Part shown: positions 2,236 to 43,014 of the stretch, in pieces
Layout of the letters: each line of letters starts with the position of its first letter
Position numbering within the stretch: position 1 is the first letter of the stretch
Sequence record: MH051917
DNA length: 64,000 bases
Reading direction: 5' to 3' (one strand)
Source: Enterobacteria phage vB_EcoM_IME341
Notes under the pieces: model-generated
Databases searched by the model: none
What the model saw: only the letters and a program-made list of their open reading frames with translations
Told to the model about the DNA's origin: nothing
Position numbers and translations under genes: made by a program

Positions 2236-3517
2236 AGTTTTTATCCAATGGAGGAAGTTTAACACCAAGATAAGAACTCAATTGACTTTGATTAGCCATT
2301 TTGTCCATATCCGCACCGTCAATAATACGAGCTTCTTTGTCGTCTTTAGCGACGGTATAAGGATTCGCAGTCAATGCATACCGAGCCAATAAAGATATGG
2401 TAGGTTGCAATGAATCTGGGTCTACAATAACCTTGAATTCACCTACTGAAGTATCACCTTCATCATCAACTTCTTCGAGCCCTTCCGTATAAGGCGCATA
2501 ATACAAAGATGCGACCGTCTGCCCTTCACCCATCTGAGCATTTACACCGACAATAACATAATCACACGGACTATTCATATCAGCATAAAGTGGTAGACCG
2601 TTCTTTAATATGCCATAAGCTAATTCGTCTTGGTCTTCTTTTTTCTCAACCCAACCGGATGCAGCTAAAATAGCGGCGCAACGAGAAGAAGCTACTGCAT
2701 AAGTACCTGCAAACGAAGTCTGGCGTTGAACAGCAGAATTCATTTCACACATATAGTAATACAAGGTACGCGCTCGGTCTTGGGCGTTATCATATTGTGG
2801 GTCTGTTAAGTTCAAGACGCCTTTCTCGGAAACTCCTTGGACTTTAAAACGAGAACTTACCGTAATTAAGGACTGTAATACGTCTTTATTAATTTCTTCG
2901 GCCATTTGAATAGCCAAAATATTGTCTATAAAGTCTGGTGCATTAAACCCGTTGGATTCTAAATCCTGGGCCAGTTCTACAGTCAAAGAAGTTTTAAGTT
3001 TACGCGATTTAACTTCAGTCTGCCACTTATCAATACGGAATCCTGCTTCAGCAATCTCAGGATGGCCTTTTTCAAATTTATTGGTAAAGGCTGCATCAGA
3101 CATCATACGAATATGGCCTGCTGCAATAGCTTCTGAAATAACTTCACCCAAATCGGTTTCAGTTGTTCCTGCAAACGGAGAAGCTTCTAATACCTTGAAA
3201 ACCACACTTTCGAATTGGAACATATCACCAACAGCATATGCTTCGTCTTTATCGGTGAATTCAGGAATGTTTTTACGTTCGAACATACCAATTTCGCCTG
3301 CAAAAGTGGCTCCGCCGAGATAAGTCATTTTATCGTCTGGGTTTAAAACACGGACACCATATAATGCTGCAACAGGTTGAGTAGTTTTTTGTTCAGCAAC
3401 AAGGGCTTTAAAAATTCTTTTATTAGTTGCCTGGGTATATGAAAGAAGATTAGGACGGGCGACCTGGTTGGCCGCCGTCAAAGTTGATTCTTGTATTAAT
3501 GCATTAATCTTTTTCAT
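2234..3517 (-). CDS. second, diverged copy of capsid vertex protein gp24
   Basis: 427 aa, same length and alignable end to end with adjacent gp24 at clearly lower identity. Confidence 0.85.
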   Translation of the reverse strand: MKKINALIQESTLTAANQVARPNLLSYTQATNKRIFKALVAEQKTTQPVAALYGVRVLNPDDKMTYLGGATFAGEIGMFERKNIPEFTDKDEAYAVGDMFQFESVVFKVLEASPFAGTTETDLGEVISEAIAAGHIRMMSDAAFTNKFEKGHPEIAEAGFRIDKWQTEVKSRKLKTSLTVELAQDLESNGFNAPDFIDNILAIQMAEEINKDVLQSLITVSSRFKVQGVSEKGVLNLTDPQYDNAQDRARTLYYYMCEMNSAVQRQTSFAGTYAVASSRCAAILAASGWVEKKEDQDELAYGILKNGLPLYADMNSPCDYVIVGVNAQMGEGQTVASLYYAPYTEGLEEVDDEGDTSVGEFKVIVDPDSLQPTISLLARYALTANPYTVAKDDKEARIIDGADMDKMANQSQLSSYLGVKLPPLDKN

Positions 3518-4798
3518 TTATGCCTCGTAAATAATTGGAGGAAGTTTAACACCAAGCAGATAAGACATATTACTCTGCCCTGCCATTAAATCCATATTAG
3601 TTGCGTCTATAACACGAGCTTCTTTATCATCTTTAGCAACGGTATACGGGTTTGCTGAAAGTGCATAACGAACCATCAGAGAAATAGCCGGTTGCAAACT
3701 ATCAGGGTCTACAATAACTTTATAGGCACCAACATGTTCTTGGTCGTCTAAATCCAGACCTTCGGTATACGGAGCATAGAAAATAGAACCAACTACTTCA
3801 TTACCGCCGTAATCTTCTTTAACGCCTACGATAACATAATCTAAAGGACTATTAACATCACAGAATACAGGCAATCCATTAATCAAATAACCGTAAGCAG
3901 TTTCTGGGAGCCAAGCTTCATCTTCTGGTTTATGTTTCAACCAACCTGAACCTGCAAGCATTGCGGCTACACGACTAGATGCGACAACAAACGTACCTGA
4001 ATAAGAAGTGGTTTTCTGAATTTCAGAATTCATCTCACAAACCATTTCATATAATTTACGTGCACTTTCTGGAGCGGAATTATAGGACAAATCAATAATA
4101 CCGTTATCAGATACACCAGTTACTTTGTAACGTTTAGATACGGTAATCAAGGATTGTAATACGTCTTTATTGATTTCATCAGCCATTACAGTGGCTAAAA
4201 GGTCTTCTAAGAACGCAGGGGCGTCGAAGCCATTAGATTCCATGTCTTGGGCTAGTTCTACAGTCAAAGCGGTTTTAAGCTTACGGGACTTAACAGGGGC
4301 GTTCCATTTATTAACCTGGAATACTGCATTGCTAATTTCAACATCACCTGCTTCGAATTTTTCTGTGTGGGCCGCATCAGGAACAAGACGACAAGTTAAT
4401 GACACCAAACCTTCTTGAAGGGCATCAGCCAATTCTGTAGCGCTAGTGGATGCGAGTGGGCTTGCTTGAAGAGCCTTATAAACCACATTCTGATACTTGA
4501 AATATTCACCCTCGGCAATCGCCTGGGCCTTATCTGTGAGTTCCGGGATAGTTTCACGGTCTTTAGAACCAACTTCACCGCCATAAACGGCACCAGTTTG
4601 GAAGCTGAATTCATTATCAGGGGTAAGATATTTGACACCATACAATGCAGCAATAGGCTGGCTAGTACGTTGTTCAGCAATAATATCACGGTAAATCAAT
4701 TTGGTTGTAGCACGGGTCAAAGCAACAAGATTAGGGCGACCCAATGAGTTGCTAGAAGTAGTTGTTGACTCGCGCAGTAATTCGTTAATCTTTGCCAT
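3518..4798 (-). CDS. 24: capsid vertex protein gp24
   Basis: 426 aa; N-terminus MAKINELLRESTTTSSNS; position next to gp23 as in T4. Confidence 0.9.
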   Translation of the reverse strand: MAKINELLRESTTTSSNSLGRPNLVALTRATTKLIYRDIIAEQRTSQPIAALYGVKYLTPDNEFSFQTGAVYGGEVGSKDRETIPELTDKAQAIAEGEYFKYQNVVYKALQASPLASTSATELADALQEGLVSLTCRLVPDAAHTEKFEAGDVEISNAVFQVNKWNAPVKSRKLKTALTVELAQDMESNGFDAPAFLEDLLATVMADEINKDVLQSLITVSKRYKVTGVSDNGIIDLSYNSAPESARKLYEMVCEMNSEIQKTTSYSGTFVVASSRVAAMLAGSGWLKHKPEDEAWLPETAYGYLINGLPVFCDVNSPLDYVIVGVKEDYGGNEVVGSIFYAPYTEGLDLDDQEHVGAYKVIVDPDSLQPAISLMVRYALSANPYTVAKDDKEARVIDATNMDLMAGQSNMSYLLGVKLPPIIYEA

Positions 4799-35599: not shown

Positions 35600-36049
35600 A
35601 TGGCTTACTCAGGGAAATTTAAACCTACAAACTTACAAAAATATAAAGGTGACTGGAAGAAAATCCAATATCGTTCCTCTTGGGAAGCATGGTTTATGCG
35701 TTGGCTTGACAACCATCCTAATGTAGTCCAGTGGAATTCAGAAGAGGTGGTTATCCCATACTTTTGCAATGCTGAAGGAAAGAAAAGACGTTATTTTATG
35801 GACTTCTGGGTTAAATTTGATACAGGTCAACAATTCTTTTTTGAAGTCAAACCTTTTAAAGAAACCCATGCTCCTGCGGTGCCTGTTAAAATGACTACGG
35901 CCGCTAAAAAGAGATATATCAACGAACACTATACTTGGTCTGTTAATACCGATAAGTGGAAAGCAGCTAAAGCTACAGCAGATAAAATGGGTATCACCTT
36001 TAGATTGATTACCGAACATTCACTGAAAAAATTAGGATGGAAAGGATGA
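35600..36049 (+). CDS. 4: head completion protein gp4
   Basis: 149 aa; synteny; PD-(D/E)xK-like YFMDF...FEVK. Confidence 0.75.
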
Positions 36050-40427: not shown

Positions 40428-40712
40428 ATGCTATACGTTAAGGTTACTAATCCAGAGAATGGCTATAAATCCGATCAGGTTGCAGCTGAGTTGTTGATTC
40501 GCAATTATGGCAAAGATGCTGTTCTTGATGTTCAACAGGTTAATATAGGACGTAGTTCAAGCGATGTTAAGCTCAAAGTTAACAGCCATCGTTATAATTC
40601 TGTTAACTTTACTTTTTATACCGCAACTGAAAATGGATTGGTCGAATACGACATCTTTAAAAATCCTTTGAAGATTGCTTCTATTAAACTTGATTACATT
40701 AATATGCTTTAA
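40428..40712 (+). CDS. hypothetical protein
   Basis: 94-aa ORF. Confidence 0.45.
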   Translation: MLYVKVTNPENGYKSDQVAAELLIRNYGKDAVLDVQQVNIGRSSSDVKLKVNSHRYNSVNFTFYTATENGLVEYDIFKNPLKIASIKLDYINML

Positions 40713-40815
40713 GAATTATGTGATATTATTACTCTATCATTAATACCCTCTATTACCAAAGGTTCTTCCCTCAAAGAATCTTTCATAATAGAATTAATCA
40801 ACTAATGAGGAAAAT

Positions 40816-41235
40816 ATGATTACTCCAATTCTTATCGATTTTAACAGCGAAACCTGGGAAAATCCAGAAATCGCTACAGAAGTATTTTATAACTGCCAAC
40901 CATCTGAAATTAACTATAATTGTTTTGACGGGAATTTAATCCGTATTTGGTTAAAATCTAAAGAACACTCGGCCCATATTGTGGCTACAGTCTGTGATGA
41001 CGAGTTATATGAAATGTGTTCCGGCGTAACAGAATTTGATGCCGATTTAATTGCTGGATGGTTATTCACTGTTTTATTTGAAGATGTTTGGTCACCAGGC
41101 GGTGAACAATTCTGTTTCAGCGAGTTTGGTAAAAAGTTAGGTGTTTTTTCTTCGGATGACACCAATTTTAATATTTCGCCTGATATTTGTGTACACTATG
41201 ATGGCCCTTCCGAAGGTTGGAATTGGTCTAGTTAA
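40816..41235 (+). CDS. hypothetical acidic protein
   Basis: 139-aa ORF with AGGAAAA RBS. Confidence 0.5.
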   Translation: MITPILIDFNSETWENPEIATEVFYNCQPSEINYNCFDGNLIRIWLKSKEHSAHIVATVCDDELYEMCSGVTEFDADLIAGWLFTVLFEDVWSPGGEQFCFSEFGKKLGVFSSDDTNFNISPDICVHYDGPSEGWNWSS

Positions 41236-41242
41236 GAATTAA

Positions 41243-41319
41243 GGCCCTGTAGCTCAATGGTTAGCAGCAGTCCCCTCATAAGGGAAAGGTTACCAGTTCA
41301 AATCTGGTCTGGGTCACCA
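41243..41319 (+). tRNA. tRNA with CAT anticodon (Met, or Ile2 if lysidine-modified)
   Basis: cloverleaf folded by hand: T-arm ACCAG-TTCAAAT-CTGGT, anticodon loop CTCATAA, 3' CCA encoded; one acceptor mismatch. Confidence 0.65.
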
Positions 41320-41387
41320 ACTTTGATTAGGTAGAGCAGTCAACTTCTCCATGAATAAATATCTATATAAAATTCATGGAGAAAATT

Positions 41388-42047
41388 ATGCTTTGCCAAT
41401 ATTGTTCTAAAGAATGTAAAAACTTAAATTCACTAAAGCAACATGAAAAACGGTGCAAATCTAACCCAAATGGATTAGATATGAGCGGCCCTAATAACCC
41501 TCGTTTCGGTCTTAAAGGTGTCAATCAATTTACAAAAGCCAAAGAACTAGGTAAAGAAATAAAGGTTTCTGATAAAACCAGAGAAAAACTTAGAAAAGCC
41601 AATACAGGATATGTATGGTCTAATGAACGCAAAGAAGCACATTCTAAAAGAATGCGGCAAGCTGTTCTTGATAATCCTGATTCATATTCTGCTTCTAATG
41701 TTTCTGGTCGAGTAAAAACATATGAGTTTGACGGATTTAAATTTAAAGGGACTTGGGAATTAAAAGTTGCTAAGTTTTTAAAAGAACACAATATCAAATA
41801 TACTAATGAAATAAAGCCAATTCCTTACGAATGGGAAGGTTCAGAACATCTCTATTTTCCTGATTTTTATTTACCCACTTATGATTTTTATATAGAAGTC
41901 AAAGGATATAAAAGAGATAGAGACCTTTGTAAATGGAAAGCTTTAGAAAATTTGATAGTTTTAGAAAAAGATGAGATTTCCGATTTGTCTTGTCTTTTAA
42001 ATAAATTACGTCCCGCTGGTGTAATGGATAGCATACGATCCTTCTAA
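41388..42047 (+). CDS. free-standing homing-endonuclease-like protein: CxxC...HxxxxC zinc finger, NUMOD-like linker, PD-(D/E)xK domain related to gp4
   Basis: ATG 41388 after GGAGA; C-terminal YFPDFYLPTYDFYIEVKG parallels gp4 YFMDF...FEVK; lies in tRNA cluster like T4 segB. Confidence 0.55.
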   Translation: MLCQYCSKECKNLNSLKQHEKRCKSNPNGLDMSGPNNPRFGLKGVNQFTKAKELGKEIKVSDKTREKLRKANTGYVWSNERKEAHSKRMRQAVLDNPDSYSASNVSGRVKTYEFDGFKFKGTWELKVAKFLKEHNIKYTNEIKPIPYEWEGSEHLYFPDFYLPTYDFYIEVKGYKRDRDLCKWKALENLIVLEKDEISDLSCLLNKLRPAGVMDSIRSF

Positions 42048-42084
42048 GTTTGCGGTCCTGGTTCGATCCCAGGGCGGGATACCA
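42010..42084 (+). tRNA. tRNA-Arg (TCT anticodon)
   Basis: acceptor GTCCCGC/GCGGGAT, T-arm CCTGG-TTCGATC-CCAGG, anticodon loop CTTCTAA, CCA encoded; overlaps 3' end of the preceding ORF. Confidence 0.7.
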
Positions 42085-42314
42085 AATGAAGACTATTATA
42101 TAGTCAAGCCGTCGTATGAAGACTGATTGCCAGCATTCACCGGCGCAACAAACAAGAAACCGGGTCGCTACCGGTAAGTCGTCGGACTGAAGTTCTCTGG
42201 AGTATAGTTCCTCCCACAGTTGTACTGTGTTCTGGTTCTTTACTATCACAGCTGAAACGGCGCACCGAACACTTGCCTAGCAGGTGGAACCCCGACAAGG
42301 TTGCCGCAAGGCAT
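42085..42314 (+). ncRNA. GC-rich non-coding segment downstream of tRNA-Arg; candidate stable RNA (cf. T4 species 1 and 2 RNAs)
   Basis: no ORF, GC clearly above the window background, ends at an intrinsic terminator; inference only. Confidence 0.3.
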
Positions 42315-42342
42315 AGCCCCTTCCGAAAGGTTGGGGCTTTTT
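42315..42342 (+). terminator. intrinsic terminator (AGCCCCTTCC-GAAA-GGTTGGGGCT + T5)
   Basis: GNRA-loop hairpin and U-run; near-identical copy at 42963. Confidence 0.7.
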
Positions 42343-42383
42343 GGCATAATAAATAGATAAGTTAATTAACTTAGGAAATAATA

Positions 42384-42848
42384 ATGAAAACTTACAATGA
42401 ATTTTTGACTGAACAATCTAGTTCAGATGTAAAAGCCGCTGCGATTGCAGCAATTCAAGCAGGTAAATATTCTTACAAAGACGCCTCTGATGAAGAACGT
42501 TTCCGTTTTATTAAAGATTTTAAAGCCGAAGGTTTTACTAATGCTAATACTGTTAGCCGAGTTTTTAAAAGCCTAGCTGCATCAGGTGAATTGTTCCAGA
42601 AAGCTACAGGTAAAGCACCTGCGCCAAAAGCGGACCCTAAAGCCGCTCAAGAAAAAAATATCGCCAAAGGAATTATTTCTAAGTATGAAGCAATTCTTAA
42701 AGAGCTTTTAGTAATCAAAACAGAAGGCCAGAAACTGGCACGGGCACATAGCTTCAAAGATAATCCGCATGCTCACGACTTAGAGTATGTTGAAGATATT
42801 CAGAAAATCATCAAAGACCGTATCTGGTCTGCTAAACAAATCAAATAA
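42384..42848 (+). CDS. internal-protein-like protein with leader [11 protein letters not shown]
   Basis: capsid-targeting leader; 154 aa; position corresponds to ipI in T4. Confidence 0.65.
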   Translation: MKTYNEFLTEQSSSDVKAAAIAAIQAGKYSYKDASDEERFRFIKDFKAEGFTNANTVSRVFKSLAASGELFQKATGKAPAPKADPKAAQEKNIAKGIISKYEAILKELLVIKTEGQKLARAHSFKDNPHAHDLEYVEDIQKIIKDRIWSAKQIK

Positions 42849-42853
42849 CGAAA

Positions 42854-42872
42854 GCCCCGTCTGGGGTTTTTT
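42854..42872 (+). terminator. intrinsic terminator
   Basis: GCCCC-GTCT-GGGGT followed by TTTTTT. Confidence 0.7.
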
Positions 42873-42962
42873 GGTTAACTTAGAGAAATATATGAAACTT
42901 TTAAAATAAAGCTATGTTAGCCTTCCACATAAACCCATTCCGGTTCTACAAGAACTGATTCT

Positions 42963-42992
42963 AGGCCCTTCCGAAAGGTTGGGCCTTTTTTG
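42963..42992 (+). terminator. intrinsic terminator, direct repeat of 42315
   Basis: AGGCCCTTCC-GAAA-GGTTGGGCCT + T6. Confidence 0.7.
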
Positions 42993-43014
42993 TTTCTAAA
43001 AGTTTAAAAAAGTT

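Follow-up and report, generated by a model that had tools for sequence, protein, structure and literature searches.

The homing endonucleases of T4-type phages, a classic model, have been described from the GIY-YIG, HNH and EDxHD families. SegB of phage T4 targets tRNA genes and is widely associated with them (PMC2330249; PMC13096335), and was recently shown to drive the amplification of tRNA and anti-defence genes (PMC13096335). The segB gene occupies the spacer between tRNA-Ile(CAT) and tRNA-Arg in the T4 genome (PMC2330249; Table 1 of PMC2988022). A 64,000-nucleotide (nt) sequence from Enterobacteria phage vB_EcoM_IME341 (accession number MH051917), a T4-type phage of the genus Dhakavirus, forms the window analysed here and was found to carry in the same spacer, between tRNA(CAT) and tRNA-Arg(TCT), an open reading frame (ORF) for a predicted nuclease with a PD-(D/E)xK active site (Table 1). 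It is probable that this ORF and its leader make up a free-standing homing endonuclease cassette of an undescribed family that targets tRNA genes, or did so until recently. Judged from the sequences compared here, the family would differ from the known homing endonucleases both in its catalytic scaffold and in invading tRNA genes at the anticodon without an intron.

Table 1. Features of the nuclease cassette and its flanking tRNA genes, numbered from the first nucleotide of the window
Feature	Position	Strand	Basis
tRNA(CAT), complete, T4 'tRNA-Ile' type, left neighbour of the cassette	41243..41319	+	ARAGORN, Rfam tRNA 53.9 bits
Degenerate tRNA 5'-half fossil: D-arm, anticodon-stem 5' strand, C32-U33; left end of the cassette	41321..41345	+	leader alignment
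Inserted stretch relative to the empty allele, boundaries +/- 3 nt	41323..42006	+	alignments with Dhakaviruses vB_EcoM_005 and PSD2002
Leader hairpin, 12-bp stem, 15-nt loop	41345..41383	+	RNA folding
AATAAATA, 7/8 match to the T4 late-promoter box TATAAATA	41354..41361	+	read from sequence
Nuclease ORF, 219 aa: zinc finger, NUMOD3-like helix, endonuclease-I-like PD-(D/E)xK nuclease	41388..42047	+	
C2HC zinc finger (C3, C6, H19, C23)	41394..41456	+	modelled beta-beta-alpha fold, pLDDT ~97; weak C2H2 finger model matches
Minimal PD-(D/E)xK nuclease domain, residues ~110-200, catalytic E124, D159, E170, K172	41715..41987	+	
tRNA-Arg(TCT), complete	42010..42084	+	ARAGORN, Rfam

The spacer between the two tRNA genes was compared with the corresponding region in other phages. 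Only 5-8 nt separate tRNA(CAT) from tRNA-Arg in the Dhakaviruses vB_EcoM_005 and PSD2002, and the window has ~685 extra bases at this position. Most close relatives are without the cassette, and a near-identical copy was found in 3 of 50,697 phage records, namely EcWhh-1, vB_Eco_F25 and HEMP5, the first of which (an Escherichia phage) is the nearest record to the window with 96.9% identity across positions 41200-42300. A contiguous empty allele of the slot was present in at least 19 records. A SegB-like protein was encoded in 146-203 records (tblastn, E <= 1e-40), and its location in this slot was confirmed for T4T, T6, LHE83 and IME540 only. The segB gene of T6 is directly upstream of tRNA-Arg, and the Dhakaviruses LHE83 and IME540 carry in the slot a 221-amino acid (aa) ORF annotated as a homing endonuclease. 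The LHE83 copy, the only one subjected to Pfam analysis, matched both GIY-YIG and NUMOD3, and no Pfam GIY-YIG match was detected in the window protein at E <= 10. The initial annotation, which placed T4 segB at the equivalent position, described it as a GIY-YIG enzyme and proposed that a different nuclease family occupies the same niche here, is thus borne out.

The cassette has also crossed genera. The block consisting of tRNA(CAT), the cassette and tRNA-Arg in Tequatrovirus F25 is 97.1% identical to that in the window over 849 nt, and the flanks share 69-84% identity. The window, EcWhh-1 and F25 share the same 5' leader sequence, and the ORFs of the window and F25 differ by 11 synonymous and 5 non-synonymous codons, giving a ratio of non-synonymous to synonymous substitution (dN/dS) of ~0.11. 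The conserved block and the low dN/dS ratio together point to a gene that has moved recently and remains under selection. Sporadic occurrence with a sharply bounded empty site, horizontal movement without the flanking sequence and an intact predicted active site joined to DNA-binding modules are all characteristic of homing endonuclease genes, and filled and empty allele pairs were also found in Kuttervirus and Lazarusvirus; the homing-endonuclease-like gene recognised initially is supported on each of these points. By analogy with other phage homing endonucleases, the enzyme would cut the DNA of a related co-infecting phage without the cassette, and the cassette would be copied across when the break is repaired by recombination with the cassette-bearing genome. 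As now constituted, the cassette appears to begin with a decayed tRNA 5'-half fossil, followed by a leader hairpin that includes a late-promoter-like box and then by the nuclease ORF. It sits in this phage between two intact tRNAs, in the slot used by T4 for segB, and may home into that slot.

The edges of the window cassette and the T4 segB cassette have sequences in common. ATTTTGA is found at the left edge in T4 and F25, and TTTTAAAT..TTAC at the right edge, just before tRNA-Arg (window positions 41320-41327 and 41996-42009; locus L009 of T4, positions 1577-1583 and 2273-2288; locus L002 of F25, left junction). One cassette may thus have taken the place of the other by recombination at these sequences, or both may have kept one ancestral spacer.

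The protein was examined in an alignment of 76 homologues (43-85% identity) covering residues 1-200. The zinc finger reported in the initial annotation is present and conserved, although its second half is spaced HxxxC and not HxxxxC; the full pattern is C3-x2-C6-x12-H19-x3-C23, in which C3, C6 and H19 do not vary and the conservation of C23 is 90% or higher. The NUMOD-like basic repeats described at the same time were reduced to one visible NUMOD3-like helix at residues ~59-75, and the Pfam NUMOD3 model scores in 13 of the 76 homologues at the homologous helix. The alignment also contains a conserved segment, NPDSYSxSNVxGRVK. The C-terminal PD-(D/E)xK module, including YFPDFYLPTYDFYIEVKG, was found as predicted, and its modelled fold is a nuclease fold, closest to that of the EDxHD/Vsr-like enzymes (I-Bth0305I). 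The four catalytic residues are invariant in the homologues, and W123-E124 and P158-D159 stand with E170 and K172 as the invariant or near-invariant positions of the domain. The zinc finger and NUMOD3-like helix, given their sequence, should bind DNA, and the PD-(D/E)xK domain should cut it, probably as a dimer and in both strands.

Database searches connected the nuclease domain with PHROG 15137 'endonuclease' (5e-39) and with T7 endonuclease I, the only solved relative found by sequence (E 1e-5 with the single protein and 1.3e-6 with the family profile). E124, D159, E170 and K172 align with the T7 endonuclease I catalytic residues E20, D55, E65 and K67. A profile search of PDB sequences at E <= 10 recovered T7 endonuclease I only, and neither 3r3p nor Vsr. 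The parallel drawn earlier with the gp4 fold encoded at 35600 is real but distant, at the superfamily level, as the family profile aligned with the protein at 35600-36049 across the E..D..ExK core with an hhalign E-value of 3.8e-5 and a probability of 71%. This gp4-like head-completion protein (149 aa) itself has a TnsA-like PD-(D/E)xK domain (Pfam PF08722, E 2e-23) in which the E..D..ExK residues are present.

Family members are labelled in databases as 'endonuclease', 'endonuclease I', 'Holliday junction resolvase' or 'hypothetical'. The second and third of these labels, like the sequence similarity to T7 endonuclease I, would fit a Holliday-junction resolvase or another structure-specific DNA nuclease that serves phage replication or recombination. 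However, the match to T7 endonuclease I is limited to a catalytic core of ~65 residues, and in this protein the core is joined to modules that read sequence, as is typical of homing endonucleases, and the gene is tied to tRNA genes. The gene is missing from nearly all close relatives, and therefore has no core function. T4-type phages also have their own resolvase, gp49, and a role of this kind is considered extremely improbable. A defence or anti-defence protein was rejected, as PADLOC gave marginal PD-(D/E)xK matches only and NCBIfam nothing meaningful.

A homing endonuclease directed at tRNA genes is consistent with the positions at which other members of the family are inserted. Acinetobacter phage Stupor, a Lazarusvirus, carries an intact tRNA-Ile(CAT), and phage Apostate has a 664-nt cassette within the anticodon of this tRNA, with flanks that are 98-100% identical. 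The insertion point is ambiguous (between C34/A35 and T36/A37) owing to a 2-nt microhomology. Both tRNA halves are intact in Apostate, the stop codon of the ORF is formed with A37-A38, and the ORF takes up ~630 of the 664 nt. The Lazarusvirus-type slot was filled in 9 of 108 related records. Outside the clade of the window, the nearest protein (68% identity) is that of Citrobacter phage CkP1, a Karamvirus. Comparison with the tRNA-Met of Edwardsiella phage PEi20, which is intact, shows that the 5' part of the CkP1 tRNA breaks off at C34 and that the 3' part begins again at A35. In Kuttervirus PhaxI, the first ~27-33 nt of the resident tRNA-Met of phage SJ3 are retained, and the remainder has been replaced by the cassette and a different complete tRNA-Met, with flanks that are 99.6% identical. 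This slot was filled in 6 of 271 related records, and among the others those listed were empty or had an HNH gene. As relatives insert inside the anticodon of tRNA(CAT), the ancestral target is likely to have been a tRNA gene, which would explain why the cassette lives in tRNA arrays.

ARAGORN also called long introns in tRNAs of the family loci, but many of these calls are chimeric in tRNA-dense DNA, and loci L005 (CkP1) and L006 were accepted only after comparison with intact alleles. Further orphan T-arm-like pieces, GGTTCGATTCC and GGTTCGAGTCC, are present in L005 (positions 3168-3290) downstream of the split tRNA-Met and outside any predicted tRNA, and are the same in PEi20. They look like debris of past tRNA-gene turnover.

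A hidden Markov model of tRNA 5' halves was used (nhmmer) to screen 450 kb of family loci in which complete tRNAs had been masked. It identified 23 orphan tRNA 5' halves. In 15 of these, the distance from the end of the half to the start codon of the downstream nuclease ORF is 10-146 nt, compared with ~0.3 cases expected. The screen did not pick up the corresponding stretch of the window, which is too degenerate. In an alignment of leaders, however, this stretch aligns with the orphan 5' halves ahead of the homologous ORFs in CkP1, P0003, P0005, P0008, Apostate, L012, L017 and L065; it lacks the first ~8 nt, and its bases correspond to tRNA positions ~9-33. As 41321-41345 aligns in this way, the window cassette appears still to carry a decayed piece of a tRNA gene that was split by its ancestor. 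A fossil ending in an Arg TCT anticodon was ruled out, as the equivalent bases form a hairpin arm in the CkP1 and P0003 leaders. The fossil and the tRNA downstream of the ORF do not in general form a direct repeat, the fossil being the 5' half of a different tRNA. In L076, however, the upstream fossil and the complete tRNA(CAT) downstream begin with the same 7 nt (acceptor strand), and in L037 and L065 these 7 nt differ at one position. The D-arms and anticodon stems differ strongly in all three loci, and the downstream tRNA of L076 has a long extra arm. Such a pattern would be expected of a cleavage-resistant replacement allele that travels with the nuclease gene.

The split tRNAs of Apostate and CkP1 could also be read as a protein-dependent intervening sequence at the RNA level. 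The nuclease would then act on the tRNA precursor, either excising its own insert, with the halves rejoined by the T4-type RNA ligase 1 and polynucleotide kinase of the phage, or processing transcripts of the tRNA array, and the window copy would be derived from such an element, having ceased to interrupt a tRNA. If true, this would be the bacterial-virus counterpart of archaeal and eukaryotic tRNA splicing. However, the window and most members have a complete downstream tRNA or have lost the 3' half, which leaves nothing to splice, and the filled and empty alleles are so similar that the intact halves may only reflect recent insertion. Sensitive Rfam scans for a ribozyme or group I intron in window positions 40700-43000 and in L005, L006 and L007 yielded tRNAs only, the leader is 38-60 nt long, the active site is of the DNA-nuclease type of T7 endonuclease I, and the sporadic distribution does not fit a processing function. 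Action on RNA is thus very unlikely.

The tRNA-gene target favoured here is also consistent with where the family as a whole is found. When 1.84 billion representative proteins were searched with the family profile, the search returned 334 clusters (50% identity) at E <= 1e-30 and 2,656 at E <= 1e-10, and some members have two or three zinc fingers. The sequenced phages that carry the gene include members of the Straboviridae (Dhakavirus, Tequatrovirus, Karamvirus, Lazarusvirus, Tulanevirus and Aeromonas phages), Ackermannviridae (Kuttervirus), a Vibrio phage and jumbo Staphylococcus phages. The gene lies inside a tRNA cluster in all four annotated loci that were opened. These four and 79 IMG/VR loci were de-replicated at 80% protein identity to give 58 clusters, and a tRNA was present within 100 nt of the ORF in 42 of the 58 loci (hand tally), compared with 9.0 expected when the ORF was placed randomly in the same +/-6 kb (the maximum of 200,000 simulations was 22). 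A tRNA starts within 60 nt downstream of the stop codon in 34 of the 58 loci, on the same strand as the ORF in all but one, and the ORF enters the downstream tRNA in 22 loci. The anticodon is CAT in 26 of the 34 downstream tRNAs, compared with 11.4% of all tRNAs in the loci (binomial P 2e-18). The downstream tRNA(CAT) was considered as a conserved target, but these tRNAs have little in common beyond universal tRNA features and a CTCATAA loop, and no common recognition sequence could be derived. A full-text literature search, from which subscription-only literature was outside the scope, found no description of the family, and the term 'DUF7487' returned no paper. In a 154-kb metagenomic T4-like contig (L095), a tRNA array that contains a member of this family also has, directly after tRNA-Gly, a second nuclease-like ORF of a different type (positions 4000-4677; RAP / DUF559, Vsr-like), which may be another tRNA-array homing endonuclease.

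The 3' end of the window ORF overlaps tRNA-Arg(TCT) by 38 nt (42010-42047), corresponding to the last 12 codons and the stop codon; the overlap had been noted initially, and the tRNA was located by both ARAGORN and Rfam. The TAA stop codon is made up of tRNA-Arg anticodon base 36 and loop bases 37-38. Across the family, overlap lengths group at 10 nt, where the stop codon is U8-A9-G10, and at 38-39 nt, where it is the TAA of the anticodon loop, indicating that taking the stop codon from a neighbouring tRNA is a habit of the family and not a peculiarity of the window. The protein tail past residue ~200, which includes the 12 residues encoded within tRNA-Arg, varies in length and sequence among homologues, and as the 76 homologues align over residues 1-200 only, these 12 residues fall outside the conserved protein. 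The tRNA-Arg sequence is the same in filled, empty and segB-bearing alleles, and the window tRNA(CAT) is 100% identical to T4 tRNA-Ile over 76 nt. The start codon at 41388 was preferred, as it is preceded at a distance of 6 nt by a GGAG (41378-41381) and fits the M-x-C with which homologues begin. Initiation at an in-frame ATG at 41376 would give a 223-aa product with its first cysteine at position 7, and was disfavoured for this reason and because that ATG is without a Shine-Dalgarno sequence and inside a hairpin stem.

This hairpin is formed by an inverted repeat, which is real but is 12 base pairs (bp) long and not 9 bp as had been described, with the arms TTCTCCATGAAT (41345-41356) and ATTCATGGAGAA (41372-41383) being 100% complementary. 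The RNA has a predicted folding energy of -18 kcal/mol (z = -4.3; 1 of 200 shuffled sequences folds equally well), and its 3' arm holds both the Shine-Dalgarno sequence and the upstream in-frame ATG. The hairpin is kept in six leaders (window, CkP1, P0003, P0005, P0008 and Apostate), in which 9 of the 12 pairs are retained with compensatory changes, and 27 of 45 leaders across the family have at least 6 of 10 bases of the Shine-Dalgarno region in base pairs. AATAAATA, which may act as a late promoter, consists of the final three bases of the 5' arm and the initial five bases of the loop. Of the 45 leaders, 16 have ATAAATA (1.1 expected) and 9 the exact TATAAATA (0.3 expected) in the 60 nt before the start codon. 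TATTTAT, often as ATATTTATA, replaces TATAAATA upstream of the start in non-T4-type metagenomic members (15 of 45 leaders, 0.7 expected; L012, L013, L017, L020, L022, L023, L025, L026, L038, L041, L043, L055 and L090), and may be the late-promoter box of another phage group.

The arrangement of the leader and the 3' end suggests that expression of the cassette is probably held down in two ways. In early read-through transcripts, the hairpin would fold and hide the ribosome-binding site, preventing translation, and a late transcript that begins inside the hairpin would be translatable (for the same early/late leader-hairpin logic, see PMC2330249 and PMC2988022). The second brake is possibly provided by RNase P, as the stop codon sits within tRNA-Arg, and cleavage at the tRNA-Arg 5' end would strip it from the message and leave a non-stop message.

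Several observations weigh against a homing endonuclease that is active on tRNA genes. Both flanking tRNAs in the window are intact and match those of cassette-free relatives completely or almost completely, with no difference in the 5' halves; thus no self-immunity difference is visible and there is no obvious target here. The Pfam NUMOD3 model gives no score on the window protein even at E <= 10. The match to Pfam Phage_endo_I (PF05367) reaches 24.4 bits, below the gathering threshold of 29.1, and is confined to the core (profile positions 14-72 of 149), and Foldseek matches in the PDB are weak (best E 0.03). The late-promoter-like box of the window is imperfect, and no cleavage, homing or marker-exclusion experiment on any family member was found. 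The cassette could be stranded in this phage.

Stranding would apply more widely if the gene were a homing cassette by descent only, left in T-even-type genomes where the ancestral target tRNA(CAT) lacks a cleavable form, and moved by recombination between the conserved flanking tRNAs. The flanking tRNAs are indeed the same in filled and empty alleles, the fossil is degenerate in the window and intact in CkP1 and Apostate, and the cassette is very rare in the slot compared with the genes for SegB-like proteins. However, the ORF is under purifying selection with all catalytic residues intact, and the cassette has crossed genera recently. SegB also cuts the tRNA genes of its own genome, so the missing immunity difference is not decisive (PMC2330249). 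A cassette moved solely in this manner is considered unlikely, and an endonuclease that homes, or did so recently, remains the preferred interpretation.

Differences from related phages were also observed on either side of the slot. A 139-aa ORF just upstream of tRNA(CAT) (40816-41235) has no Pfam match and is present in EcWhh-1, where it is annotated as VR7 gp149-like; it is swapped for an unrelated 267-nt coding sequence in vB_EcoM_005, PSD2002, LHE83 and IME540. Downstream of tRNA-Arg is a non-coding stretch of ~300 nt (42085-42383), for which Rfam has no matching model, and which includes a homologue of rnaD (T4 species 2 RNA) at ~42157-42270. The rnaD-like part is preceded by ~70 extra nt and is joined downstream directly to the sequence that follows rnaC in T4, and from this arrangement rnaC (species 1 RNA) seems to be absent from the stretch.

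The family would add to the homing endonucleases a large group whose catalytic scaffold is different and whose habitat, the tRNA arrays of phages, is sharply defined, and in the slot of SegB it represents a second independent nuclease tied to tRNA genes. The split tRNA(CAT) genes and orphan 5' halves, often with a different complete tRNA(CAT) downstream, offer a concrete mechanism for the gain, loss and replacement of phage tRNAs. If the enzymes are site-specific, they would be compact zinc finger and PD-(D/E)xK nucleases with natural targets in conserved tRNA genes.

Among known systems, SegB resembles the window nuclease in occupying the identical slot from tRNA-Ile(CAT) to tRNA-Arg(TCT), where its gene ends a few nt before tRNA-Arg, in being free-standing and in its size of ~220 aa. 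A leader hairpin that hides the start has been proposed for both, the SegB-like protein of LHE83 has a NUMOD3 motif, and the choice of target and avoidance of self-cutting pose the same problem for SegB (PMC2330249; PMC13096335). However, the GIY-YIG domain of SegB is N-terminal and the PD-(D/E)xK domain of the window protein is C-terminal, the catalytic domains being unrelated and the domain order reversed, and segB has its own stop codon and no tRNA fossil upstream. I-Bth0305I has the same layout as the window protein, with an N-terminal NUMOD region and a small C-terminal nuclease (PMC3239194), but is encoded in a recA group I intron, has NUMOD2-like helix-turn-helix motifs and lacks a zinc finger. 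A search with the profile of the window protein's own family gave no sequence match to the EDxHD family (I-Bth0305I, Hef) at E <= 10, and the active site is E...PD...ExK in place of that of EDxHD/Vsr. T7 endonuclease I (gp3), whose four catalytic residues are shared, differs in being a domain-swapped, structure-specific junction resolvase encoded by a core phage gene, with no zinc finger or NUMOD region. The insertions of Apostate and CkP1 in a tRNA anticodon loop recall the homing genes of group I introns in bacterial and cyanobacterial tRNAs, but no ribozyme was found in the loci scanned, and the tRNA gene appears simply split or is accompanied by a second, complete tRNA. By the tests that define them, the window protein falls outside the GIY-YIG Seg, EDxHD/Vsr-like and T7 endonuclease I families. 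On the sequence comparisons made here, its closest known counterpart would be SegB in function and niche, the EDxHD family in architecture and fold, and T7 endonuclease I in active-site sequence.

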